Below are positions 5,463 to 47,969 of a stretch of 55,598 nucleotides of DNA, in pieces. Source of the DNA: a virus. Lineage: Duplodnaviria > Caudoviricetes. The notes below the pieces were generated by a model. It had not been told where the DNA came from. It saw nothing but the letters and a program-made list of their open reading frames with translations, and made no database searches. The translations under genes and the position numbers were made by a program. Positions within the stretch are counted from its first letter, which is position 1. Each line of letters starts with the position of its first letter. The stretch lies in the IMG/VR virus record IMGVR_UViG_3300005805_000113, positions 1 to 55,598 of that record, one strand, 5' to 3'.

Positions 5463-5490
5463 TTGACTTTCCGACAGGATGTGCTATACT
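5463..5490 (+). promoter_or_regulatory. sigma70-type promoter with extended -10
   Basis: TTGACT-16 nt-TATACT preceded by TG. Confidence 0.7.
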
Positions 5491-5560
5491 TATTCCTGTC
5501 AGTCGTTGATGCGTCGTTGTCGCCCGACGCAGCAACTCACAACCAAGGCGAAAGGATAGA

Positions 5561-5839
5561 ATGAATACTATGGCTACTCGTAAGTCTCAGAAGGATCGTC
5601 TCGTTACCGCGTTCAACAGCGGCTATGATTTCACCACGAACCAGATCGCATCGCGTCTCAACGTGAGCGATTCACGGGCGCGATTCCTCATCACGGAGCT
5701 TCGTCAGGATGGCTATGCCATCTATAAGAACACCAAGACCATCAACGGCATGTCCACGCCGGTCTACCGTCTCGGCACGCCGAGCCGTGAGATGGTCGCT
5801 GCGGCGTTCGCGTCGCAGGGCGCGTCGATCTTCGCGTAA
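5561..5839 (+). CDS. Small winged helix-turn-helix DNA-binding protein
   Basis: 92 aa basic protein, FTTNQIASRLNV...ARFLITELRQDGYAIY...YRLGTPSR; AAGGA RBS. Confidence 0.7.
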   Translation: MNTMATRKSQKDRLVTAFNSGYDFTTNQIASRLNVSDSRARFLITELRQDGYAIYKNTKTINGMSTPVYRLGTPSREMVAAAFASQGASIFA

Positions 5840-5846
5840 TCCCACG

Positions 5847-5872
5847 ACGGGGGAGGCCGAGGCCTCCCCCGT
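5847..5872 (+). terminator. GC-rich hairpin (terminator or processing stem)
   Basis: Perfect inverted repeat ACGGGGGAGGCC/GGCCTCCCCCGT after the stop codon, but no U-tract. Confidence 0.45.
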
Positions 5873-6092
5873 ACTCATTCGTAATGGCTGGCCAATCTGA
5901 CATACGATGAGGTACATAATGATTGGTCGTGAACTGCCTAGCGGGAAGCTCACCTTCCACCCGTAAGCGTGAATAAATAGGGCAGAGACGGGTATTTCAT
6001 GCGTAGATTAGCACCCCTATTCCACGCATACTCGGCACCGTAAAGGGACGAGAATCGTCGGGTAAGCCTTCGGGAACCCCTGACAGCCGAGA

Positions 6093-6163
6093 ACTCGACT
6101 GGGCGAGTATAAACAGGATTTAGGCCCAGTGCGGCATATCGGTGTTACGCCGATATGCGTATC
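6093..6163 (+). ncRNA. Pistol self-cleaving ribozyme
   Basis: P1 ACTCG/CGAGT; loop ACTGGG pairs with CCCAGT (pseudoknot); ATAAACAG linker; P2 GAT/ATC; GCG; P3 GCATATCGG/CCGATATGC; G-U cleavage dinucleotide at 6159-6160. Confidence 0.9.
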
Positions 6164-6326
6164 GTTGAAACGTCGGAGTAGACTCTCCGGGGGCCACGAA
6201 CGGTTCTTGCAGTCTCCAAGAATCGGCGGAGGCGTATCGAACGCCAAGCCGTGGTGATTATAATCACAGACCTCACCAGAGGAAACTTGACCGTAGAAGG
6301 TCTGGTGTGATATTAGAAACGGTCAT

Positions 6327-6363
6327 CCGCCGTAGGAATCGCGAATTCCTGCGGCGGTTTTTT
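6327..6363 (+). terminator. Rho-independent terminator
   Basis: CCGCCGTAGGAAT/ATTCCTGCGGCGG stem followed by TTTTTT. Confidence 0.9.
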
Positions 6364-6383
6364 ATTTGTGCTATACTAGACGC

Positions 6384-6923
6384 ATGTTTCAAACCTACGA
6401 CGGGATTCTTTCCAAACCCTTCTGCGAACATTTGATTCGGCGTTTTGATACGGCGGCACAGAAAGACCACACCCACTCGATGTTCGACCAATTGGAGATG
6501 ACTCCACCGGCGGAGTGGACGCAGGAAACGGCGACTATTATGGATGTGGTCAAACGCGCGTCGGCCGACTATGCGCATTACTATGACCCCCATAAGATGA
6601 TGCCCATACAGCGGCTTGTCGAAACCTGTCGCATCAAACGGTACGAACCTAACCGACATCGATTTCCTCTTCACGCGGATGCGGCCAATTATCGAAGCTG
6701 CACCCGCTATCTGGCGTTTTTGTTTTACCTCAACGATAACGAAGCCGGCACGCGGTTCTATGGTGCACGGGATAGTGAAGGCTGGCGCATTGACGCCACG
6801 CAAGGCACCCTCCTCATCTTTCCCCCTATGTGGATGTTTCCGCATGAAGGGCTCATGCCGACCACCCATTCCAAATATATTCTCAGCACCTATTTCCATT
6901 TTGCCCCACCGACCACCGCATGA
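6384..6923 (+). CDS. 2OG-Fe(II) oxygenase
   Basis: HAD...RYLAFLFYLND..GT.F...GTLLIFPP.WMFPHEG...KYILSTY; ATG 6 nt after TGCTATACT. Confidence 0.85.
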   Translation: MFQTYDGILSKPFCEHLIRRFDTAAQKDHTHSMFDQLEMTPPAEWTQETATIMDVVKRASADYAHYYDPHKMMPIQRLVETCRIKRYEPNRHRFPLHADAANYRSCTRYLAFLFYLNDNEAGTRFYGARDSEGWRIDATQGTLLIFPPMWMFPHEGLMPTTHSKYILSTYFHFAPPTTA

Positions 6924-7186
6924 CGATGATGAACTCGATATACGCTCGTTCCGCCAAACTGTTTGTCTTGCAGTTTTGCATGTATTTTATTGTGACACTG
7001 AATATTCGCGCGGTCGCCCATTTAGATTATGTGATGGTGTTTATCACCGACGTGCTCATCGCGACTATTGGATTTACAACGATCAAAGAAGTCATCAAGG
7101 CCGAGACACGGACTGAGCAAATCTGTTATGTGCTGGGCGGGGCTGCGGGTGCGCAAGTCGCACTCGTGGCGTCATTTTTTCTCTAA
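6920..7186 (+). CDS. Small membrane protein
   Basis: 88 aa with three hydrophobic segments; ATGA overlap with upstream gene. Confidence 0.65.
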   Translation: MTMMNSIYARSAKLFVLQFCMYFIVTLNIRAVAHLDYVMVFITDVLIATIGFTTIKEVIKAETRTEQICYVLGGAAGAQVALVASFFL

Positions 7187-13257: not shown

Positions 13258-13719
13258 ATGGCTGTTTACGATTACGAGGCGTCCTTTGTGGAGATTCGGT
13301 TTCCTGATGTGGAAGGGGCGTCCGGCAAAGAACCGGCGGATAACTTTCTCAAAGTCAAGGAGACGCTGACCCGCATCGGGGCGCCGGCTTATAGCAAAGA
13401 CCCGAATGAGCCGGGGAAAACCTTATGGCAGTCATGTCATATCTTATACAAGCGGCAACGCTACTACTTGGTGCATTTCAAGGAAATGTTCCTGTTGGAC
13501 GGCAAAGCATCGCGCACCGTCATTACCGAGGACGATCTGGCACGGCGCAACGCGATTGCGATGCTCCTCCAGCAATGGGGCTTGATTGTCGTCGTGCATC
13601 AGGATCGCATTCAAAACCCGCATCCGGCGCCGATTGATACCTTGAAGATTATTCCGTTCAAGGATAAAGGCAACTGGAATCTTCGTGCGAAGTATGAAAT
13701 AGGCAAAACACGAAAGTAA
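13258..13719 (+). CDS. regA: Translational repressor RegA
   Basis: DNFLKVKETLTRIG, LWQSCHIL.K..RYYLVHFKEMF.LDG, RRNAIA.LL..WGL. Confidence 0.95.
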   Translation: MAVYDYEASFVEIRFPDVEGASGKEPADNFLKVKETLTRIGAPAYSKDPNEPGKTLWQSCHILYKRQRYYLVHFKEMFLLDGKASRTVITEDDLARRNAIAMLLQQWGLIVVVHQDRIQNPHPAPIDTLKIIPFKDKGNWNLRAKYEIGKTRK

Positions 13720-38213: not shown

Positions 38214-38287
38214 TGGGATGTGGTGTAACGGTAGCACAGAAGCCTTTGAAGCTTTTTGTTGGGGTTCGAATCCCTGCGTCCCAGCCA
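38214..38287 (+). tRNA. tRNA-Gln(TTG)
   Basis: Cloverleaf, loop CTTTGAA, encoded CCA. Confidence 0.92.
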
Positions 38288-38292
38288 ATTTT

Positions 38293-38378
38293 GCCCGCGT
38301 GGTGGAATGGCATACACGGTGGACTCAAAATCCACTGACGGCAACGTCATACTGGTTCAAGTCCAGTCGCGGGCACCA
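38293..38378 (+). tRNA. tRNA-Leu(CAA)
   Basis: Cloverleaf with long V-arm, loop CTCAAAA, CCA. Confidence 0.95.
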
Positions 38379-38391
38379 CTAAATATTGAAT

Positions 38392-38649
38392 ATGAAACTG
38401 AGTATGAAGCACAATAATGTAATTGCAGAGGAACAGCCGGCGTGGTGCTGTGATCCGTGTGGAAAACAGTATGGTCGGTGGTGGATTGATGAGCGGTATC
38501 AGGGGCCCGAACCCCATACCGCGACGTATCATATCGGTGTGTGTGACGTTTGCTTGAGACCCGACACCGCAGTTACGGAACCGAGGGACTTCGGATATTT
38601 ACGGCGAGCATGGAATAAAAAAATTCGATATGCACTTGGACGTGTCTAA
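38392..38649 (+). CDS. Small Cys-rich (zinc-finger-like) protein
   Basis: CDPC...CDVC...VTEPRDFGYL; ATG 6 nt after TAAATA. Confidence 0.6.
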   Translation: MKLSMKHNNVIAEEQPAWCCDPCGKQYGRWWIDERYQGPEPHTATYHIGVCDVCLRPDTAVTEPRDFGYLRRAWNKKIRYALGRV

Positions 38650-38665
38650 CTACTAGGAGTTGCAT

Positions 38666-39001
38666 ATGCGAGTACATCTCAAGAAGGTGATGCAGTCGGC
38701 CGTCGAGCAAGGCGTCGTCGTCGGCTATCATCGCATCGATAAGCTCCCCAAAAATAAACGCGCGAATACGGATGTGATGGTTGACACCATGCTCATGAGT
38801 ATTTGGGAATCATTGGATGGCATCATTGATTTTACAGATGACGGCGAGGAGACCGAATCCCAGAAAAAAATGATCGGGTTTCAGGCGGACGCCGTTAGTA
38901 TGATTCCTGCCATTTCCGAGGACGAGGCCGAGGCCGACGATGACGAGGACGACGATATCGTCCCGTTAGATACCCTGTATCGGGTGCATCGCCGGAAATA
39001 A
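38666..39001 (+). CDS. Hypothetical protein with acidic C-terminus
   Basis: AGGAG RBS, coding-like composition. Confidence 0.6.
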   Translation: MRVHLKKVMQSAVEQGVVVGYHRIDKLPKNKRANTDVMVDTMLMSIWESLDGIIDFTDDGEETESQKKMIGFQADAVSMIPAISEDEAEADDDEDDDIVPLDTLYRVHRRK

Positions 39002-39003
39002 GT

Positions 39004-39804
39004 ATGGGTCGTCGAATCTGTATACTCCTATTCGTGTTCCTGTTCGGCGCATCGACGACCGTATTCGCGCAGAGCGGCGATCCCAGTTGGGGCGTGTATC
39101 AAGTCACGGAGAACACTACCACGCCGTTATTGATCAACCGACCGGAAAGAGTTCGTCCTATCGCGAGTATCACAAAGCTCATGACAGGGTGGATCACTCT
39201 GACGTCACAACCCAGCCTGTCACAACTCGTCACCATCACAACGCAAGACACCCGCGACGCTTCGACCACCGTTCTTCGCAGCCGCGACCGTGTGTCGATA
39301 GAAACCCTCATCTATTTGATGTTGGTGAGTTCCGATAATGTGGCCGCACGGGCGCTCGCGCGTACCGTCGAAGGCACGCGTGACGCATTTGTTGCTCGAA
39401 TGAATCGCACCGCCGAACAATTATACATGGTGGATACCCACTATGCCGATCCCGCCGGTCTTCTTGCGGGTAATGTATCGACTGTCACTGACATCATACG
39501 ATTACTCGGGGCCGTGACCTCGACACCGCTGCTGTCGGACGCGTTTCACACACAAACATATACCGCAACAATCCAGCGCAATACTCGAACACACCGACTG
39601 ACCGTTCGCAACACCAATCGATTACTCGATGATTCGATGCATATTTCTAAAACTGGGTTTACCAGTGCGGCGGGATATTGCTTGGTGCAGTGGATTACCG
39701 CTCCCGAGCGTTCGTACGTGACCGTTGTGCTTGGGGCCCCATCAAAAGATTATCGTCTTGGATTGATGCAGGCACTTATGCAATTCATTCAACCCCGATA
39801 CTAA
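39004..39804 (+). CDS. Secreted D-Ala-D-Ala peptidase, family S11 (PBP5/PBP7-like)
   Basis: Signal peptide; ASITKLMT (SxxK), SDN (SxN), KTGFT (KTG). Confidence 0.9.
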   Translation: MGRRICILLFVFLFGASTTVFAQSGDPSWGVYQVTENTTTPLLINRPERVRPIASITKLMTGWITLTSQPSLSQLVTITTQDTRDASTTVLRSRDRVSIETLIYLMLVSSDNVAARALARTVEGTRDAFVARMNRTAEQLYMVDTHYADPAGLLAGNVSTVTDIIRLLGAVTSTPLLSDAFHTQTYTATIQRNTRTHRLTVRNTNRLLDDSMHISKTGFTSAAGYCLVQWITAPERSYVTVVLGAPSKDYRLGLMQALMQFIQPRY

Positions 39805-39807
39805 CCT

Positions 39808-40440
39808 ATGCATACCACGATTCATCATGGTGCGATTGTCCATGCGGCGTTCGACACACACAAAGAACTGATTCTCACCCTCTGTCGTCCGGCGGAATTT
39901 TATGAGTGTGCCAGTACGCGACTCCGCAATCGAGCGTTCTCGTTCGAGCAGTTGGTCGATTACTACATGCACGACGATGCCACACTCGACTATTACTGGT
40001 CGGGGTTCAATATTCCAAGTGCGTCCTTAGAACGGTTCTTTACGATGTTTGACTTGACGCCACGAGAACAACAGCTACGACAAATCACACACCCGCTGTC
40101 CGCGCGCCCCTATTATCTGATTGCAACCCGCACACACGATCGCGCGACGCTTCGACATGAATTGGCCCACGCCCATTTCAGTTTAAACCCGACCTATCGC
40201 AAGCACGCCACCGCATTGGTGCGGACGCTTCCACCACGCATTCATCACGCGATTACCCGTGAATTGAAAGCCTGGGGCTATGCATCCTCGGTCATGACCG
40301 ACGAAGTGAATGCCTACATGGCCACGAGTGGCGTGCGATGGTTGCAGTCGCAGTTTAGTAGGCAAATTACTGCCACACGCGTCGCACCGTTTGTAACATT
40401 ATTCAAATCTATTTCCAATATAGATACCTCATACGTGTGA
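39808..40440 (+). CDS. HExxH-containing hypothetical protein
   Basis: EFYE, WSGFNIP, RHELAHA, GY....DEVNAY. Confidence 0.65.
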   Translation: MHTTIHHGAIVHAAFDTHKELILTLCRPAEFYECASTRLRNRAFSFEQLVDYYMHDDATLDYYWSGFNIPSASLERFFTMFDLTPREQQLRQITHPLSARPYYLIATRTHDRATLRHELAHAHFSLNPTYRKHATALVRTLPPRIHHAITRELKAWGYASSVMTDEVNAYMATSGVRWLQSQFSRQITATRVAPFVTLFKSISNIDTSYV

Positions 40441-40498
40441 TATAATACTTCACAGACTACGTTCTTTGCCAAACAAATATTATGCTGAATGGACGTGG

Positions 40499-40572
40499 CC
40501 GCACGTAGCTCAATGGTAGAGCAGCACGTTTACACCGTGCCTATGGGAGTTCAATTCTCTCCGTGCGGACCA
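40499..40572 (+). tRNA. tRNA-Val(TAC)
   Basis: CCGCACG/CGTGCGG acceptor, loop TTTACAC, CCA. Confidence 0.9.
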
Positions 40573-40577
40573 GTAAT

Positions 40578-40661
40578 GCCGGATTGGTGGAATGGCATAC
40601 ACACCTGTTTTAGAGGCAGGCGCCGCAAGGCATACAGGTTCAAGTCCTGTATCCGGCACCA
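40578..40661 (+). tRNA. tRNA-Leu(TAG)
   Basis: Long V-arm, loop TTTAGAG, CCA. Confidence 0.92.
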
Positions 40662-40669
40662 GAATAGTT

Positions 40670-40746
40670 GGGGTTGTAGTTCAGTTGGTTAGAACGCCTG
40701 CCTGTCACGCAGGAGGTCGCGAGTTCGAGTCTCGTCAATCCCGCCA
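40670..40746 (+). tRNA. tRNA-Asp(GTC)
   Basis: Canonical cloverleaf, loop CTGTCAC, CCA. Confidence 0.95.
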
Positions 40747-40751
40747 GTTAT

Positions 40752-40825
40752 TGGGAGGTCGTTCAACGGTAGGACAGCAGACTCTGACTCTGCTTATCGG
40801 GGTTCGAATCCCTGCCTCCCAGCCA
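40752..40825 (+). tRNA. tRNA-Gln(CTG)
   Basis: Loop CTCTGAC, U1-A72, CCA. Confidence 0.95.
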
Positions 40826-40831
40826 GTTTTT

Positions 40832-40916
40832 GCCGGGTTCGCATAGTGGCGATTGCACCGCTCTTGTAAGGCGGCGAGGAAACTCCACGTCGGTTCGAGT
40901 CCGACACCCGGCTCCA
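40832..40916 (+). tRNA. tRNA-Thr(TGT) with long variable arm
   Basis: CCGCT/GGCGG stem, loop CTTGTAA, 14-nt V region with GAG-GAAA-CTC hairpin. Confidence 0.85.
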
Positions 40917-40922
40917 TTTTAT

Positions 40923-40997
40923 GCCGCTTAGGCTTAGAGAGCGAAGCACGGCATTGGTAATGCCGAGAGCAGGGTGCATGTCCCTGAAGCGGCTCCA
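40923..40997 (+). tRNA. tRNA-Thr(GGT), atypical D and T loops
   Basis: All four stems pair; loop TTGGTAA; T-loop TGCATGT, D-loop lacks GG. Confidence 0.75.
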
Positions 40998-41035
40998 GTA
41001 TGGAAGTGAAGACGTGTGGAACACTAAATACTTGC

Positions 41036-41614
41036 ATGGAAAACGCAAAGTCTAAAGTCTCCACAGAGTATGACGGGCAACGTCGCATCCTATATGAAAA
41101 GCAGTGCGCCGTGTGTGGCAATGCATTCTGGGTTCCGAAACATCGATTAACGCAATCGACATGTTCCTCGGTATGCCGCGGAAAATCTCGAAGAAATCGT
41201 GCATTAGTCATATGCACCAATTGTGGACAAGAATTTGAGCGTCCGATAAACAAATTGTCCGGCGTCAAACACGGGCATCACTTTTGTAGCCGTGCGTGTA
41301 AGGATGCTGCGCAAAAATTGACAGGTTCATGTCCAGATATTCGTCCCGCGCATTACGGCACCGCCAAAATACCGGATTATAGAAGTCTCGTCGCCGTCGA
41401 AGAGTGTGAACTCTGTAAGATAAACGAAACGTATCTTCTCGTTGTTCACCACGTCGATGGCAACAGAGAAAACAATAAGCGGGAAAACTTAAAGGTGTTG
41501 TGCTTCAATTGCCATGCACGTCATCATCTAGTTGAAAAGGCTGGTGCATGGCGCTATAATAGCTCTACACTTACACCGATAGAAAAATTGCAATCATTTG
41601 GGGGCATCGTATAA
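41036..41614 (+). CDS. HNH endonuclease with zinc-ribbon repeats
   Basis: CxxC repeats, FCSRAC, LVVHHVDGNRENNKRENLKVLCFNCHARHH; ATG 5 nt after TAAATA. Confidence 0.85.
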   Translation: MENAKSKVSTEYDGQRRILYEKQCAVCGNAFWVPKHRLTQSTCSSVCRGKSRRNRALVICTNCGQEFERPINKLSGVKHGHHFCSRACKDAAQKLTGSCPDIRPAHYGTAKIPDYRSLVAVEECELCKINETYLLVVHHVDGNRENNKRENLKVLCFNCHARHHLVEKAGAWRYNSSTLTPIEKLQSFGGIV

Positions 41615-41674
41615 CGGGCATTACGTCGCGTTTGCACCGCGAAAATTTCAGTTCAATTCTGAATGTCTCCACCA
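41600..41674 (+). tRNA. tRNA-Ala(TGC)
   Basis: G3:U70 pair, loop TTTGCAC, CCA. Confidence 0.9.
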
Positions 41675-41681
41675 CCAGTTA

Positions 41682-41767
41682 GGCGAGGTAGCGAAGCGGT
41701 CAAACGCAGCAGACTGTAAATCTGTCGCCTTAGGGCTTCGGAGGTTCGAATCCTTCTCTCGCCACCA
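41682..41767 (+). tRNA. tRNA-Tyr(GTA)
   Basis: Long V-arm, loop CTGTAAA, CCA. Confidence 0.95.
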
Positions 41768-41773
41768 CATTGT

Positions 41774-41849
41774 TGGGATGTAGCCAAGTTGGTAAGGCAC
41801 CTGACTATTAATCAGGCTATCGTAGGTTCGACTCCTACCGTCCCAGCCA
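41774..41849 (+). tRNA. tRNA-Asn(ATT)
   Basis: CCTGA/TCAGG stem, loop CTATTAA, U1-A72, G73, CCA. Confidence 0.88.
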
Positions 41850-41857
41850 AAATTTAT

Positions 41858-41933
41858 GCGAATGTAGCTTAATTGGCAGAGCGCCGCCTTGCCAAGGCGG
41901 AGGTTGTCGGATCGTTGCCGATCATTCGCTCCA
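41858..41933 (+). tRNA. tRNA-Gly(GCC)
   Basis: Loop TTGCCAA, U73, atypical T-loop ATCGTTG. Confidence 0.88.
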
Positions 41934-41981
41934 TTTGTGCGTGGGGGTGAGGTAGAACCTCACCCTTCACTAAATAGATGT

Positions 41982-42509
41982 ATGTTCTATATCATCTATA
42001 AAATCACACACAACGCATCCGGAAAACAATATATTGGTAAACATCAAACCAAAGATGTGAATGATGGTTATATGGGGTCTGGTAAACTTTTACGACTTGC
42101 CATAGAAAAATACGGGCGAGATTCATTCAGTAAAGTAGTTCTTCACATATTTGACAATGAAAATGATATGAATGCCAAAGAGCGTGAATTGGTGACCGAA
42201 GAATTTTGCCAAAGAAAAGACACGTATAACTTATGTGAAGGTGGTAAAGGTGGATTTGGATATATCAATCAAAGTGGAATACCAAAATTCACAGGAAACC
42301 ACTCACAGCAAACAAGAGAAAAAATTAGTCAAGCAATGAGCGGAAAGGTGCGCCGCCCGTTATCCGAAGAGACTAAGAAAAAAATTAGCGAATACAAAAA
42401 AGGAAAATCAAATCCGTCAGCAAAACAACCGAAAACTGAAGAAGTAAAAGAAAAAATAAGAAATTCAGTAAAAGAGTATTGGATGAAACGCAAAGCGGGG
42501 TTAACTTAA
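41982..42509 (+). CDS. GIY-YIG (Seg-like) homing endonuclease with NUMOD3
   Basis: YIIYKITH..SGKQYIGKHQT...DGYMGSGK, YNLCEGGKGG; ATG 5 nt after TAAATA. Confidence 0.9.
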   Translation: MFYIIYKITHNASGKQYIGKHQTKDVNDGYMGSGKLLRLAIEKYGRDSFSKVVLHIFDNENDMNAKERELVTEEFCQRKDTYNLCEGGKGGFGYINQSGIPKFTGNHSQQTREKISQAMSGKVRRPLSEETKKKISEYKKGKSNPSAKQPKTEEVKEKIRNSVKEYWMKRKAGLT

Positions 42510-42568
42510 CGGTAAAGTGGCAGCCTTCCAAGCTGTAGATGCCGGTTCGATTCCGGTACCCCGCTCCA
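42495..42568 (+). tRNA. tRNA-Gly(TCC)
   Basis: Loop CTTCCAA, U73, CCA. Confidence 0.92.
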
Positions 42569-42573
42569 TATAT

Positions 42574-42647
42574 CGCGCATGGGCCGGACGGTTAGGCAGA
42601 TGCCTGCAAAGCATCCAAACGCAGTTCAACTCTGCGATGCGCGTCCA
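42574..42647 (+). tRNA. tRNA-Cys(GCA)
   Basis: Loop CTGCAAA, U73, CCA. Confidence 0.9.
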
Positions 42648-42655
42648 CCACATTT

Positions 42656-42732
42656 CGGGGCGTAGCGTAGCCTGGTAACGCACCTGCTTTGGGAGCAGGG
42701 GATCGCTGGTTCGAATCCAGCCGTCCCGACCA
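42656..42732 (+). tRNA. tRNA-Pro(TGG)
   Basis: C1-G72, loop TTTGGGA, CCA. Confidence 0.95.
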
Positions 42733-42772
42733 TTCTGCATAATATAAAATTTTCGTCATCATAAGTAGAATT

Positions 42773-43312
42773 ATGGAACGCACATTATTATTGAATGCCA
42801 CCTACGAACCAATGGATGTTGTCAACTGGCAACGCGCCATGACCCTCTGGTGTCAGGGGAAAGTCGAAATCATCGAGACGCATGATCGCGAAGTACATGC
42901 GGTGACGTTTTCATTCAAGTTACCAGCCGTCGTGCGGCTACTTCGTGTTGTGCGTTTGCGCCGGCGCAGGGACGTCCGATTTACGCGGGCGAACATCTAT
43001 ACCCGAGATAACTATACATGTCAATATTGCGGCACCTCTTTCGCCACACAAGACTTGACCTTTGATCACGTCATACCCATGTCACGCGGGGGTAAGCGGA
43101 GTTGGGAAAATATCGTGACGTGCTGTATGCGATGCAATCGACGCAAAGGATCACATACCCCCAATGAAGTCGGCATGTCGCTGTTACGAACACCCACAAA
43201 GCCCGCCTATACGCCGATCTTTCGTATTACTGTTGGCATACGAAAAACGCCAGAAAGTTGGCGAGACTATTTGTATTGGTCCGCCGAACTTGAAAACGAT
43301 AACGAGGCATGA
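42773..43312 (+). CDS. HNH endonuclease (bacterial McrA-like type)
   Basis: LLLNATYEP, LPAVVRL, RD.YTCQYCG, LTFDHVIP.SRGG..SWENIVTCC..CN. Confidence 0.9.
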   Translation: MERTLLLNATYEPMDVVNWQRAMTLWCQGKVEIIETHDREVHAVTFSFKLPAVVRLLRVVRLRRRRDVRFTRANIYTRDNYTCQYCGTSFATQDLTFDHVIPMSRGGKRSWENIVTCCMRCNRRKGSHTPNEVGMSLLRTPTKPAYTPIFRITVGIRKTPESWRDYLYWSAELENDNEA

Positions 43313-43343
43313 GATACGTGTTGCGTCCAGTCTAAATACCCAC

Positions 43344-44387
43344 ATGAAGTTGCTGCTCCTATCTTTATGCGGGCGAGACAACGAAGACGAAGATGTCTCC
43401 TACCTCAATCTGTATCTCGCCTCGCTTCGTCGTCATGTCATTCCACATTTCGATACCCGCGTCATTTTGTTCAGCACCTTTAATGCAACCACGAAAACAC
43501 AAGCTCGCGTGAACGCATTCGGGTTAGGTGAGCAGGTGCGTGTATATGGGTATAATGATATCGGTCTGCCAGCAGAAACCGCTGAGTTTTTGCGCAACAA
43601 AGTATCCTACTTTCCGAAAATTGGACTCAACATGAATTTGTTGTTTGACTATGCACAGCAACATAATTTTTTTGAGGCGGATTGGATTTTTCATACCGAT
43701 ACCGATATTGAATTTTTGGAAAACTTTGCGCCGCATATAACAGCATTGCAAGGCATGACTGCGGTAAACCCAAAAATTTTAGTATCGTGCGCCGGAGATA
43801 CCTACTTACATAATTTTCGATACAGAGAACAAGAATATATTTTCAATTATCCGCCGCGATGGAATGCGTATACCGAGCCCCCGCCAACACCGTTCGAACA
43901 GTTATTTCTCTTTGCCATAACCCGTCGGCCAGAACCACGGCAACATCCGTTCGATCAGGAACATCGTCTTGTGTTTAATGCGAAGAGTGTCAAGGTTCGC
44001 AATGATTTTGTCGGTCTGAGCCGCGCATTGGCGAATACGCAGGTATTAAATTGGGCGCATACGTATTCTCCACTGGCCACGCGTGGCGTTCCTGATAGCA
44101 GCCCCGATATGGCGGCACTCCAAGAGTTATGGAACGAACATCATCGTGGCAGTAATTTACCACTGGAACTCCAACTCAATGAAGACAAAGGGTCTTCTAT
44201 TTTATATTGGCTTAAACACGGAACACACGACGTAACATGGGTCCAACTACGCGGATACCGAGATATGGCCAATCATTATTCGGCTGGCTGGGGCGGAAAT
44301 AACAATTTTAGCCATCGAGCAATAGCAACCTTGCGACGAGAGTATAGCGATACGGAACATATTTGGGCGGCTGATTATCCAACATAG
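43344..44387 (+). CDS. Possible GT-A glycosyltransferase
   Basis: WIFHTDTDIEF DxD-like motif; ATG 5 nt after TAAATA. Confidence 0.5.
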   Translation: MKLLLLSLCGRDNEDEDVSYLNLYLASLRRHVIPHFDTRVILFSTFNATTKTQARVNAFGLGEQVRVYGYNDIGLPAETAEFLRNKVSYFPKIGLNMNLLFDYAQQHNFFEADWIFHTDTDIEFLENFAPHITALQGMTAVNPKILVSCAGDTYLHNFRYREQEYIFNYPPRWNAYTEPPPTPFEQLFLFAITRRPEPRQHPFDQEHRLVFNAKSVKVRNDFVGLSRALANTQVLNWAHTYSPLATRGVPDSSPDMAALQELWNEHHRGSNLPLELQLNEDKGSSILYWLKHGTHDVTWVQLRGYRDMANHYSAGWGGNNNFSHRAIATLRREYSDTEHIWAADYPT

Positions 44388-44407
44388 TGTGCTATACTCT
44401 TACTCAT

Positions 44408-44500
44408 GCACCCGTAGTGTAATGGTCAGCACCCGAGGCTTATAACCTCGCAGCTCTAGATTGGGGCGGAGTCTTGGTTCGAATCCAAGCGGGTGTACCA
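44408..44500 (+). tRNA. tRNA-Ile(TAT) with long variable arm
   Basis: CGAGG/CCTCG stem, loop CTTATAA, 22-nt V region, A73, CCA; own TGCTATACT -10 box upstream. Confidence 0.85.
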
Positions 44501-44521
44501 ATCTTTGTTCTAAATACTCAT

Positions 44522-45466
44522 ATGACCCCCCATGAGTATGACGTGATCTCCGTTAACGTCCGCATCCATCGCCCCGCGACTATCGCGAGTGGATTCTATG
44601 ACAGCGTGTCATCACGACTTATCGAAAAGTTGCCGGTGCGAACACTAACTTCCTACACCTATGGTTCTCCGATTCCCGACGAGCTACCCACAGAAATTGC
44701 CGACATCATTCGTCGTAGCACAGGATTTCAAGCACTCATCATTCGAAACCCTGACCAAAAATTTATTCTGATTGAATATACCGATGGCCCCAGCGGCACC
44801 ACCGGCGCAATTGATACACACGCTCCACATTTTCTCGGTGCGGTTGTGTGCCAATACGATGCGTTGAGTACCGCCTACAAATCGAGCCCATATCAGATTG
44901 TGCCGGGATACTTCTCTCGCAATATGGAAACGCCGTTACCCCCGTATACGGGGACTATTGATAAGCTAGTGTTTGTGGGTACCGTTCACCCCGACGTGCC
45001 AGAACGTCAAGCTCTGTTGAGGTTACGTGAGCATCCAGACCTGACCCTCGTGGAAGGCTATGTGCGCCGACCTGATGGGGCGAATATTCGGCCGGTTGAA
45101 TACTCACACGCTCTGTCGCAGTATGCGAGTCATCGTGCGGTGCTGGCACTTCGCGGCACATCATATTTTTGTTTTCGAGAGTTTGATATTCTTGCGGGGG
45201 GATATCCGTTAATTAGTCATGAACTCAACTACACGTCCCAAATGGAGCCGTTGGTGGATGACGAACATTACTTTGCCGTGCCGTTTGATCCGCACCCCGA
45301 GGTATTTGCTCGACGATTGATAGACAAGTTTAACGACGTGCGCGGAGATACCGCACGATTAGAACGAGTGCGCCGAAACGGTCAGTCATGGTTTTTTCGA
45401 AACGCTACGTGGCAGGGAATTACGGATCGTCTCTACGAGTGGACCCTCCGAATACTGTCCTGCTAA
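44522..45466 (+). CDS. Possible GT-B glycosyltransferase
   Basis: LVFVGT...ER, VLALRGT...CFREFDIL..G, LVDDEHY; ATG 5 nt after TAAATA. Confidence 0.55.
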   Translation: MTPHEYDVISVNVRIHRPATIASGFYDSVSSRLIEKLPVRTLTSYTYGSPIPDELPTEIADIIRRSTGFQALIIRNPDQKFILIEYTDGPSGTTGAIDTHAPHFLGAVVCQYDALSTAYKSSPYQIVPGYFSRNMETPLPPYTGTIDKLVFVGTVHPDVPERQALLRLREHPDLTLVEGYVRRPDGANIRPVEYSHALSQYASHRAVLALRGTSYFCFREFDILAGGYPLISHELNYTSQMEPLVDDEHYFAVPFDPHPEVFARRLIDKFNDVRGDTARLERVRRNGQSWFFRNATWQGITDRLYEWTLRILSC

Positions 45467-45496
45467 ATATTTTGACACAAAAGGAGAGCTATCGCT

Positions 45497-46456
45497 ATGA
45501 TATTGACGAGTATTCGAAAATTTATGTTGTCGCACTATACGTGGGTGACCCGAATTTTTGCCATCGCCGCGGTCTGTGTCGTGCTTGGGGTAATTATTTA
45601 CGGCGCCAAAAAACCGCCGCGCATCAGCCAACTTGACCCCATTACAACCGTCATCGAAGTGCCCGTGGAGAAGCTCACCACGAAAACTGTCACCGAGTAT
45701 GTTCGCGTCGAAGATCGAACCGCCGTGGACCGCTTGATGCGCGACAACGCCGCACTCAAGAGTACGGTCCAGCAACTCACGGTGTCATTGGCCGAAGCTA
45801 CGAGCCACGGCGCAGGAACGGTGGTGGTTACCACCCCCGATCCGACCACCAACGAGCCTACGATTATCAAAGTGCCAATGACGTTGCAGTTCAAAGACTG
45901 GCGCTTAGAGTTTCAGAGTGATGGAGTGACGGCGCATTACACGCTCTCGCAAAAATTTTCTATCCTGAATACGGTCGGGCGCACCGACACCAATACACCC
46001 GTCAATATTGTGCGCCTGTTTGAAATCGGCGCGAACGGGGAGCGGCTTCCCATTCCTACTGTCGAAACGACGATCATTAGTGCCCAACCAACGCGGGACC
46101 GTTTCTATATGAAGCCGACCCTTCAGGCAGGGGTAGGAATTTTGCCACGGTGGGACTCTACTGCGACGCCAACTACGACCGGTGGTCGGACGCGATATGA
46201 TACGTCACTCGCCGTGGCAGTGCCGTGGTGGAAACGAGGACGGACCACGGCGGTCGAAGATACTCGATACGCCTATTTGACACCTGTCGTAACAATCAAC
46301 GACACGGAATTGACAGGCGGACTCGCGCCGATCTCCGTGAACTTGGGCACACTACGATATTCCCCAGTGACCGACCTCTGGTTCTCTCCCTATGCGGGTC
46401 TGAGTTCTCGACACGGCAAGAAAAAGTTTGCCGTTGTGTTTACGACCACCTTTTAA
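45497..46456 (+). CDS. Membrane-anchored protein (TM + coiled coil + beta-rich C-terminus)
   Basis: N-terminal TM IFAIAAVCVVLGVIIY; C-terminal Phe. Confidence 0.65.
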   Translation: MILTSIRKFMLSHYTWVTRIFAIAAVCVVLGVIIYGAKKPPRISQLDPITTVIEVPVEKLTTKTVTEYVRVEDRTAVDRLMRDNAALKSTVQQLTVSLAEATSHGAGTVVVTTPDPTTNEPTIIKVPMTLQFKDWRLEFQSDGVTAHYTLSQKFSILNTVGRTDTNTPVNIVRLFEIGANGERLPIPTVETTIISAQPTRDRFYMKPTLQAGVGILPRWDSTATPTTTGGRTRYDTSLAVAVPWWKRGRTTAVEDTRYAYLTPVVTINDTELTGGLAPISVNLGTLRYSPVTDLWFSPYAGLSSRHGKKKFAVVFTTTF

Positions 46457-46485
46457 TTGACACGGACTGCAATATTCAGTATACT
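46457..46485 (+). promoter_or_regulatory. sigma70-type promoter
   Basis: TTGACA-17 nt-TATACT. Confidence 0.8.
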
Positions 46486-46532
46486 AACTCTCGGTGACAG
46501 ACACCCTTGTCTGCGCCCTATTGAGGATACGT

Positions 46533-46790
46533 ATGGAAAATACTGGGCATAAAATTACGCATACAAAAAATGGGCATGTCCTCACGGCCGTTCTTTACGG
46601 TGAGGTGACGCCCGAGAAAATTGATGCCGCCAAGAAAGCTCTTGCACATCGGGCCGAGCAGTTGTATTCCCCCGCGAAGACCCCAAGCGAGAACTGGAAT
46701 CGCAATGAGCGCACCATCTCCTATCGTTCGAAGAACGATGTGGATGCGTGGGACGAGTGGGGCGATGATGAGTTCGGTAACGATTTTTAA
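46533..46790 (+). CDS. Hypothetical protein
   Basis: GAGGA RBS, acidic aromatic tail. Confidence 0.6.
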   Translation: MENTGHKITHTKNGHVLTAVLYGEVTPEKIDAAKKALAHRAEQLYSPAKTPSENWNRNERTISYRSKNDVDAWDEWGDDEFGNDF

Positions 46791-46799
46791 TTAATCACC

Positions 46800-46885
46800 G
46801 CCCGCGTGGTGGAATGGTATACACGGAGGACTTAAAATCCTCTGGCGGCAACGCCATACTGGTTCGAGTCCAGTCGCGGGCACCA
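46800..46885 (+). tRNA. tRNA-Leu(TAA)
   Basis: Long V-arm, loop CTTAAAA, CCA. Confidence 0.95.
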
Positions 46886-46895
46886 CTTTTCGTAT

Positions 46896-46970
46896 GGCGG
46901 TATCGTCTATCGGCTAGGACACAGCCCTTTCAAGGCTGGAAGATGGGTTCGATTCCCATTACCGCTACCA
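46896..46970 (+). tRNA. tRNA-Glu(TTC)
   Basis: Loop CTTTCAA, CCA. Confidence 0.92.
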
Positions 46971-46985
46971 AACACTAGAGCTATT

Positions 46986-47324
46986 ATGACACGACCTAAC
47001 CTTGAACATGATCTTATTCGCAACATCAGTCTCTGTGAACGAGTGCAGACCGACCGCGAGTTTGCCAAGTCGCTCTATGCGGCACTGTGCAATACCGAGT
47101 TTCATCATGCTGCGTTGGACGAGCCGTGGGGCTGTTCGTGGCGGTATGCGGGAGGCATTCTCGCAAACATAGAAAATACCGGCGGGGACTATCTGGATTA
47201 TTATTGCAGCGGCAACGAAGGCCATGTTACCGACGAACTGCGCGCCATTTTTGCCGAGATGGGATGGGACGCACGTCCGTATCGCCGCATTAATGGTCCC
47301 TCGGGGCCGAAAGAAGTGTCCTAA
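46986..47324 (+). CDS. Conserved phage hypothetical protein
   Basis: LYAALCN.EF...WGCSWRYAGGI.A...GDYLDYYCSG.EG.V. Confidence 0.7.
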   Translation: MTRPNLEHDLIRNISLCERVQTDREFAKSLYAALCNTEFHHAALDEPWGCSWRYAGGILANIENTGGDYLDYYCSGNEGHVTDELRAIFAEMGWDARPYRRINGPSGPKEVS

Positions 47325-47327
47325 TAC

Positions 47328-47411
47328 GGAGAGGAGCCTAACGGTGGGAAGCTGTCTACTAAACAGTCGCCGGTAACTCGGTAGCAGGTTCGATTCCTGT
47401 CCTCTCCGCCA
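47328..47411 (+). tRNA. tRNA-Ser(ACT)
   Basis: GGAGAGG/CCTCTCC, G73, long V-arm, GCTGT/ACAGT stem with loop CTACTAA. Confidence 0.85.
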
Positions 47412-47417
47412 CTTATT

Positions 47418-47795
47418 ATGTCCAACACCGCCATTCAAAAATTCGCCTCGGGATTAGAATACGGGCTCGTGCCTAGCGCACCCGCGATCTCGCTTCCTGA
47501 CATTCAGAAGTGGCGCAGCCGCACACACCCTGAAGTCGCGCATCATTTTCTCGAACGCTATGAAGAACTACGGCGCGAATACGACGCGTTGTTGGAGCAG
47601 TATGCGTTGAACAAACTCGTCTACGATAGCGAGATTCGGTTTGAACCGGCAATTGGGCAAATATATTATCTCTACGAAAGATCTTCCGGTGGTCGGTTTC
47701 TCTCGCTCGTATCCCCACGACAGACCTTTTGGTCGGGATTTCTTCATGCGGTGCGTCTCACGACCGCCTATACATGGGAAGTCGTGAACATTTAA
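47418..47795 (+). CDS. DUF2452-like hypothetical protein
   Basis: AP.I, coiled coil, VY..E.RFEP.IGQ.YYLYE...FLSL.SP. Confidence 0.6.
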   Translation: MSNTAIQKFASGLEYGLVPSAPAISLPDIQKWRSRTHPEVAHHFLERYEELRREYDALLEQYALNKLVYDSEIRFEPAIGQIYYLYERSSGGRFLSLVSPRQTFWSGFLHAVRLTTAYTWEVVNI

Positions 47796-47885
47796 GATAT
47801 CGTTATTATGGACGCTATTCGGTTTTCGTCATTTGGTGGGAATCGTTGTGGGACTGACCGTCCATATTGTATACTAGAGGGGTAA

Positions 47886-47969
47886 GGTGAGGAGCCTAAT
47901 GGTGGGACGCAGCCTTGAAAGCTGTCGCCGGACAACCGGTAGCGGGTTCGATTCCTGTCCTCACCGCCA
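47886..47969 (+). tRNA. tRNA-Ser(TGA)
   Basis: Long V-arm, loop CTTGAAA, G73, CCA. Confidence 0.9.

Follow-up and report, generated by a model that had tools for sequence, protein, structure and literature searches.

The large structured RNAs ROOL and GOLLD are associated with phages and have families in Rfam, and the type III antitoxin RNAs (ToxI) are compact pseudoknotted RNAs encoded as a tandem array of short repeats next to the gene for an endoribonuclease toxin. Among the small self-cleaving ribozymes, pistol (Rfam RF02679) is known mainly from Firmicutes and their phages, with most examples in phage DNA, and it was found, like hatchet and twister-sister, by a strategy that looked in the gene neighbourhoods of known ribozymes (PMC10085705, PMC4604425). 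The theta (hepatitis delta virus-like) ribozymes that lie by tRNAs of gut phages release a tRNA (PMC10879173), and what purpose self-cleaving ribozymes serve in bacteria and phages has yet to be settled (PMC6765202). Here we describe a non-coding region, positions 5840-6363 of a viral record (IMG/VR IMGVR_UViG_3300005805_000113; Duplodnaviria, Caudoviricetes), which contains a pistol ribozyme; the whole 55.6-kb record (55,598 nucleotides [nt], estimated completeness 31%) was analysed and is called the window below.

The region lies between a winged-helix gene and a 2-oxoglutarate (2OG)-Fe(II) oxygenase gene. It resembles ROOL and GOLLD in being a long multi-domain non-coding RNA rich in pseudoknots and loop-loop contacts, from a phage with a tRNA array elsewhere in the window; unlike them, it has no Rfam match beyond the pistol, is smaller, holds a ribozyme and occurs in a single small group of phages. 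With ToxI it shares compact pseudoknotted RNA in a phage-host setting, but there is no repeat array and no adjacent toxin gene, and its modules are mutually unrelated. The pistol itself is a full-length example with P1, P2, P3, a 6-bp pseudoknot and the 2-nt cut junction, and like most pistols it is in phage DNA; it differs from the pistols described mainly from Firmicutes and their phages (PMC4604425) in belonging to a T4-like freshwater phage, in standing, with no spacers around it, within a conserved RNA of several modules (about 480-500 nt), and in the P3-loop inserts of 24 to about 70 nt that its relatives carry. Literature searches brought up no paper that places a pistol in a T4-like phage or makes it part of a larger conserved RNA, the original pistol description and the supplementary motif lists lying outside this comparison. 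As in the ribozyme-rich intergenic regions of phages and bacteria, conserved structured RNAs stand beside a known self-cleaving ribozyme near phage genes, but here those neighbours match nothing in Rfam 15 and do not recur at 118 other viral pistols. The theta ribozymes offer another parallel, that of a small phage ribozyme placed to release a structured RNA, but they are of a different class and release a tRNA (PMC10879173), whereas the RNA released here would consist of unassigned folds, and the 18 tRNA genes of the window are more than 30 kb away.

Our preferred reading, which we hold to be probable but by no means secure, is that an early phage transcript processes itself within its structured 3' part, the region described here, where one pistol cut would give an mRNA-linked tail (modules a to c and the pistol) and a free RNA of about 200 nt (modules f and g). 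The pistol sits at the joint of two conserved, independently folded RNA halves within one promoter-to-terminator unit, and pieces of both halves occur in environmental RNA libraries. The locus is therefore well suited to asking what a pistol does in a phage, and the separation hypothesis is testable on a 520-nt transcript. The features of the unit are collected in Table 1.

Table 1. Features of the pistol-containing region, its transcription unit and the matching RNA-library contigs (window coordinates)
Feature	Positions	Strand	Details and evidence
Promoter	5463-5490	+	TTGACT-16 nt-TATACT; extended -10 word TGTGCTATACT at 5480-5490; 10/12 matches, TG present
Leader hairpin of winged-helix gene	5505-5536	+	12 bp, conserved (alignment); pairing by eye; compensating changes in L003
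Winged helix-turn-helix gene, 89 amino acids	5570-5839	+	Pfam HTH_39, E 6e-6
Hairpin H0	5847-5872	+	GC-rich, just past stop codon, no U-tract; z -5.31; 3 pairs changed on both sides
Module a, H-type pseudoknot	5874-5928	+	S1 5874-5884/5902-5911; S2 5891-5897/5921-5927; 94-100% of cells paired
Module b, most conserved block	5929-5994	+	Drawable pseudoknot 5934-5940/5978-5985 crossing 5959-5964/5988-5993
Module c, extended hairpin	5999-6029	+	Abuts next module without spacer; z -5.86; 1 covarying pair; 96% of cells paired
Module d, multi-branch insert	6030-6092	+	63 nt; closing stem 6031-6036/6085-6090; z -2.2
Module e, pistol ribozyme	6093-6164	+	Rfam RF02679, 66.3 bits (cut-off 34.5), model positions 1-68 of 68
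Pistol helices		+	P1 6093-6096/6105-6108; pseudoknot 6099-6104/6124-6129; P2 6117-6119/6161-6163; P3 6134-6141/6151-6158
Module f, hairpins	6174-6254	+	Hairpin 1 6174-6178/6185-6189; hairpin 2 6201-6209/6217-6225; hairpin 3 6231-6235/6241-6245
Module f, closing stem and kissing loops		+	Stem 6194-6198/6250-6254; loop 6180-6184 (hairpin 1) with 6211-6215 (hairpin 2)
Variable hairpin	6254-6267	+	Palindrome; alignment (longer inserts in its place in relatives)
Module g, H-type pseudoknot	6268-6324	+	S1 6274-6279/6302-6307; S2 6289-6294/6319-6324
Intrinsic terminator	6327-6363	+	13-bp stem, then TTTTTT; z -5.64; 5 covarying pairs
Second TGTGCTATACT copy, own promoter of oxygenase gene	6367-6377	+	Word count
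2OG-Fe(II) oxygenase gene	6384-6923	+	Pfam 2OG-FeII_Oxy_3
RNA-library contig X1	5861-6034		Modules a-c
RNA-library contig X2	6179-6324		Modules f-g
RNA-library contig X3	6179-6317		Modules f-g; sequencing adapters on both sides

The pistol ribozyme and its transcription unit

A preliminary description of this DNA, made from the sequence alone, had named module e a pistol ribozyme, and the Rfam 15 model agrees, matching over its full length and well above the curated cut-off with identity at nearly all upper-case consensus positions. Pistols share ten strongly conserved nucleotides, and their self-cleavage depends on Mg2+. The predicted cut lies between G6159 and U6160 in the P3-P2 junction, which is where pistol cleaves; the nucleotides of that junction vary among pistols and its length of two is fixed (PMC4604425). 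The region is represented by five distinct sequences from four lineages: the window and L002 (98.7% identical to it), L003, L004 and L043 (L058 is the same as L004, L054 is identical to L043 and L056 is 99.8% identical to L043). In all five the cut-site junction is 2 nt long, GU in the window, L003 and L004 and GA in L002 and L043. The pistol scores 63 bits in L002 and 55.8 in L043; those of L003 (34.1 bits) and L004 (23.3 bits) are under the Rfam cut-off because of their long P3-loop inserts (about 70 and about 24 nt, respectively). For this and the other modules the helices of the preliminary description, refined by eye, were placed on MAFFT alignments of these sequences and their pairs counted. 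Eight of the 21 pistol pairs covary (3.6±1.3 in shuffles), and they are distributed over P1 (4 pairs, 100% paired, 2 covarying), P2 (3 pairs, 79% paired, 2 covarying) and P3 (8 pairs, 95% paired, 4 covarying); the 6 pairs of the pseudoknot are invariant. A scan of positions 5700-6500 against Rfam at E≤10 gave, besides the pistol, a single 13.7-bit chance match, and in the window as a whole the pistol alone, apart from tRNAs, reaches threshold. The earlier statement that modules a, c, d, f and g belong to no recognised family thus agrees with Rfam.

The RNA is evidently part of the transcription unit of the winged-helix gene, since the only terminator found for that unit lies beyond module g and the second copy of the promoter word TGTGCTATACT comes after it. 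A strong sigma70 promoter had been noted upstream of the RNA; the promoter is indeed there and is kept in all relatives, together with the leader hairpin and the ATG at 5570, but it is located upstream of the winged-helix gene and not immediately before the RNA. Four copies of the word stand on the + strand of the window, where 0.41 would be expected, and none of 100 shuffles had as many. The winged-helix open reading frame (ORF) has possible starts at 5561 and 5570, of which the latter is the one kept across the alignment of relatives, and its leader hairpin could be an autoregulatory or processing element. At the other end the intrinsic terminator is as first described, a stem (6327-6357) followed by a run of T. 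A weak promoter-like site inside module g (6287-6314) was rejected, as it is followed within about 15 nt by this strong terminator. The region was also said to hold no credible ORF, and its non-coding character is clear from the lineage-specific indels (the 63-nt insert and the P3 inserts of variable length), which break every reading frame; a 7-codon micro-ORF in module g (TTG at 6287) is gone in L043 and was rejected.

Conserved folds on both sides of the ribozyme

The region as a whole folds better than its shuffles (z-score -5.31 on the + strand, with none of 100 shuffles as good, and -4.24 on the - strand), and 37 of the 138 proposed pairs have changed on both sides among the five sequences. 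In each of the four alignments (H0 with a to c, the pistol, f, and g with the terminator) the covariation score was reached by none of 500 shuffles, and helices slid along the alignment gave 0-5 covarying pairs against the 8-12 observed. Covariation, which had been proposed as the check on these folds, was found for H0, a, c, pistol P1 to P3, f, g and the terminator. The picture of a modular, highly structured non-coding RNA with a built-in pistol, bounded by promoter and terminator, therefore holds. Among its compact motifs that Rfam lacks, covariation supports a, c, f and g but not b, which is invariant.

Downstream of the ribozyme, the three-way junction and kissing loop first drawn for module f are well borne out, 12 of 29 pairs covarying (6.3±1.6 in shuffles). 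These include two pairs of the kissing contact itself, which reads AGAC/GUCU in the window and L043; L003 and L004 have GGAG/CUCC instead. Hairpin 2 of this module has been copied in two relatives: an element like it lies inside the pistol P3 loop of L003 (3508-3585), and L043 has a second copy with an identical loop after module f (2383-2411). These copies would be extra acceptor loops for the kissing contact. Pseudoknot g was likewise recovered, S1 being 100% paired with 3 covarying pairs and S2 87% paired with 1; module g and the terminator together have 25 pairs, of which 9 covary (5.4±1.6 in shuffles, 17 of 500 of which reach 9 pairs).

Upstream, H0 and modules a to c comprise 63 pairs with 96.5% of alignment cells paired and 8 pairs covarying; shuffles gave 2.5±1.2 (0 of 500 as high) and slid controls 1-3. 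Both stems of pseudoknot a are present as proposed, with three covarying pairs in S1 and one in S2, and hairpin c is equally in keeping with the earlier drawing. In L003, L004 and L043 hairpin c directly abuts P1 of the pistol. What separates the two in the window and L002 is module d, whose predicted multiloop (6031-6091) reappears as the minimum free energy fold, but which is specific to this lineage and absent from the other three relatives. Module d has the look of a late insertion that brought a short duplication with it, because the ACTCG that opens it (6030-6034) also opens the pistol (6093-6097). There is in addition an 11-nt direct repeat with one mismatch between an arm of module d (6051-6061) and module f (6219-6229), and module d may have arisen by partial duplication.

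Module b is the best conserved part of the region: its identity is 87-89%, and that of third codon positions in the gene beside it 66-73%. Its nested fold is no better than those of shuffles (z -0.05), and every pair drawn in it is invariant in all five sequences, so its fold is neither supported nor refuted by the alignment. The preliminary description had called it twister-like, and a fold of that kind can be drawn by eye for 5931-5993: G-A-A precedes a P2-like stem (5934-5938/5981-5985), and there are a P4-like stem (5950-5953/5969-5972), an A-rich linker and two loop pairings, 5960-5963/5989-5992 and 5941-5942/5967-5968; the twister topology has P2 and P4 stems, a terminal loop that pairs with two internal loops (the double pseudoknot T1/T2) and an N-A cut site, and its P1 is dispensable for cleavage (PMC6154101). 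Across the whole window the twister-P1, -P3 and -P5 models (RF03160, RF03154 and RF02684) found nothing at E≤10, and all-family Rfam scans of the window and the relatives found no ribozyme besides the pistol. A P1 beside module b could have at most two pairs, the 5' flank (5921-5927) being the covarying 3' strand of S2 of module a. Because the models fail, the place of P1 is taken by module a and the RNA-library contig X1 runs unbroken across the would-be cut at 5931/5932, we do not file module b as a twister; the block itself is real, but the label lacks confirmation.

RNA-library matches and the proposed cut

Of four RNA-library runs compared, three, all riverine metatranscriptomes, each yielded a single short contig that differs from the window at 0-1 positions, X1 covering modules a to c and X2 and X3 covering modules f and g (Table 1). 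The fourth run (X4) had no match to the stretch, which is no proof of absence. None of the three contigs lies over the flanking genes or crosses the pistol cut site, which in itself proves no cleavage, and the uncovered parts (the winged-helix gene, module d, the pistol and the terminator) should likewise not be taken as absent from the RNA. The occurrence of modules a to c and modules f and g on separate contigs fits stable, structured pieces of RNA.

According to the reading we favour, the unit runs from the promoter through the winged-helix gene, H0, modules a to c (with d in this lineage), the pistol, f and g to the terminator, and the pistol would cut its transcript between G6159 and U6160 during or after transcription. 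The upstream product would be the mRNA, or a piece trimmed from it, ending in the compact a-to-c and pistol folds with a 2',3'-cyclic phosphate, and the downstream product would be a free RNA of about 200 nt, from 6160 to about 6363, with a 5'-hydroxyl and consisting of the kissing-loop three-way junction, the pseudoknot and the terminator hairpin. Pseudoknots, unusual ends and the terminator could make both products long-lived, and we infer that they act in trans through their folds; the likeliest mode is binding to a protein or to one another, rather than coding or simple antisense pairing. The earlier picture of a precursor processed into separate RNAs is supported only in part: a single cutting element has been established, which would account for one cut and two RNAs.

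Several observations weigh against such a separation. Nothing in the analysis points to a partner or target. Contigs cannot show RNA ends, strand or abundance, nor do they prove transcription, and carry-over of DNA into RNA libraries is possible. The ends of X1 are probably assembly breaks and not RNA ends, since they fall at sites that vary between the window and L002 (5859-5860 and the start of module d), and the common end of X2 and X3 at 6179/6180 lies in the hairpin-1 loop of module f, 19-20 nt downstream of the predicted cut, where the pistol offers no explanation for it. P2 of L003 has a U-C mismatch and module b is without any structural support. The covariation is real but shallow, given that there are only four lineages, that several covarying pairs may trace to single events and that the relatedness of the sequences inflates the shuffle control. 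Finally, a terminator-like site lies within 600 nt downstream of 17 of 90 other pistol cores and within 600 nt upstream of the same number (17/90), so the release of a terminator-ended RNA is not a general rule for pistols.

Of the other ways to read the locus, a cis-acting 3' untranslated region is possible, but we consider it rather improbable. The modules would then adjust how long the winged-helix mRNA lasts or how well it is translated, the pistol would remove the terminator hairpin, and the folds beside it, as sensors, would turn the pistol on or off and so make it an allosteric ribozyme. That the RNA is tied to the winged-helix gene in all four lineages and the downstream gene varies is in its favour, although this linkage may be plain synteny among close relatives. 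The lack of a spacer between hairpin c and pistol P1 in L003, L004 and L043 would also suit control of the ribozyme, and transcript processing that alters stability is a proposed role of bacterial self-cleaving ribozymes (PMC6765202). On the other hand, we saw no conserved alternative pairing that would hide P1 or the pseudoknot of the pistol, Rfam gave no match to a known aptamer, and modules f and g beyond the cut would be useless, yet their folds are kept by compensating changes. The riboswitch reading, in which pseudoknot g and the terminator sense a ligand and control read-through into the downstream gene, is the least probable that we considered. The pseudoknot ends 2 nt upstream of the terminator, and by eye the sequence of the terminator's 5' arm (CCGTAG) recurs in the loop of g in the window and L043, so that competing pairings could form; but L003 and L004 lack this similarity, no riboswitch of Rfam is matched, and the downstream gene argues against it, as it differs between lineages (the 2OG oxygenase gene or a gene of the S-adenosylmethionine (SAM) lyase family) and has its own promoter.

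In a ribozyme cluster at least one other module would also cleave itself, b being the leading candidate and f the second, and the transcript would be diced into several RNAs; we think this unlikely. Self-cleaving ribozymes do tend to lie near one another (PMC10085705, PMC4604425), module b is the most conserved block and allows a twister topology to be drawn (PMC6154101), and the shared end of X2 and X3 in the hairpin-1 loop of f might be a second cut, but the twister models find nothing, only the pistol was found in the window and its relatives, and module b has neither covariation nor room for a P1, with X1 unbroken through 5931/5932. At its boldest, and with as little likelihood, the modules would be a new class of functional phage RNA and not passive stabilisers, with module b a divergent, P1-less twister-like ribozyme, or a new one, and cuts near 5931/5932 as well as at 6159/6160. 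Were that so, two ribozymes would excise an RNA of about 228 nt with a 5'-hydroxyl and a 2',3'-cyclic phosphate, end groups of the kind joined by cellular RNA ligases; the separate f-g RNA would be a kissing-loop particle, and the pistol would gain a defined natural job. A defence decoy of the type III antitoxin kind, in which compact pseudoknots sequester a host or phage endoribonuclease, had been suggested at the outset and now appears very improbable. There are indeed several compact pseudoknots in an early-type transcription unit of a phage, but the region has no tandem repeats (only the one 11-nt direct pair), its modules all differ and no adjacent gene is toxin-like, so the analogy was abandoned; the roles first named for the RNA (decoy, sponge or aptamer) are speculative.

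The phage group, its gene order and other elements of the window

The window has T4-type replication and regulation genes, namely those for clamp-loader subunits, a RegA-type translational regulator (13258-13716) and a deoxynucleoside monophosphate kinase, and its clamp loader is only about 43% identical to those of the nearest cultured phages; it therefore comes from an uncultured, distant T4-like phage. The genes near the RNA encode a DksA-type zinc-finger protein, the HTH_39 protein (82-90% identical in relatives), the 2OG-Fe(II) oxygenase and a SAM-lyase-family protein. In the relatives the order is DksA-type zinc-finger gene, winged-helix gene, RNA and SAM-lyase-family gene, the last standing directly after the RNA in L004 and L043. 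The oxygenase gene is confined to the window and L002, so this gene, at least, appears to be a variable insert (a "moron"). Its promoter word ends 6 nt before the ATG, which suggests an mRNA that would be leaderless or have a very short leader. The oxygenase gene is followed by an ORF of 88 amino acids (6920-7186) without a family match, which has a counterpart in the L003 contig (53% identity over 70 amino acids).

Searches of viral, metagenome and genome contigs, by sequence pattern or with proteins as anchors, found the region nowhere but in members of this phage group, all of them syntenic. A module-b pattern matched 11 stretches of viral contigs, of which four belong to the family (three on contigs already known and the new L043) and seven are chance matches. 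In metagenome contigs it matched 14 stretches, four of them copies of known lineages and ten without similarity, and in genome contigs four stretches, all chance; the chance matches lay in coding DNA. A module-g pattern returned the same four viral contigs and nothing more, and alignments of the winged-helix and SAM-lyase-family proteins as queries brought no further lineage, the one new contig from the protein searches (L192) being too short, as it begins about 108 nt before the gene. Among cultured phages neither the DNA of the region nor the winged-helix protein has a match, and the modules have no paralogues elsewhere in the window. Around the 118 other pistol-bearing viral loci (1.05 Mb) nhmmer profiles of a to c, f and g found nothing (best E 2.2), although sequence profiles could miss relatives that share structure only. 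The RNA family is thus limited to a small group, four lineages of uncultured freshwater phages.

On other viral contigs pistol cores come in twos or threes, 1-4 kb or less apart (L141, 689-4283; L078, 12528-13762; L131, 3099-4334). A permuted transfer-messenger RNA (Rfam RF04321, 77.9 bits) lies at the end of L029 (4573-4761), an unrelated viral contig that came from the oxygenase search. The 18 tRNA genes of the window, which were called by ARAGORN at 38214-47969, include a tRNA-Asn with anticodon ATT and a tRNA-Ile with anticodon TAT. The four + strand copies of TGTGCTATACT start at 5480, 6367, 44388 and 50518, and one of them lies 10 nt upstream of a tRNA-Ile gene (44408).

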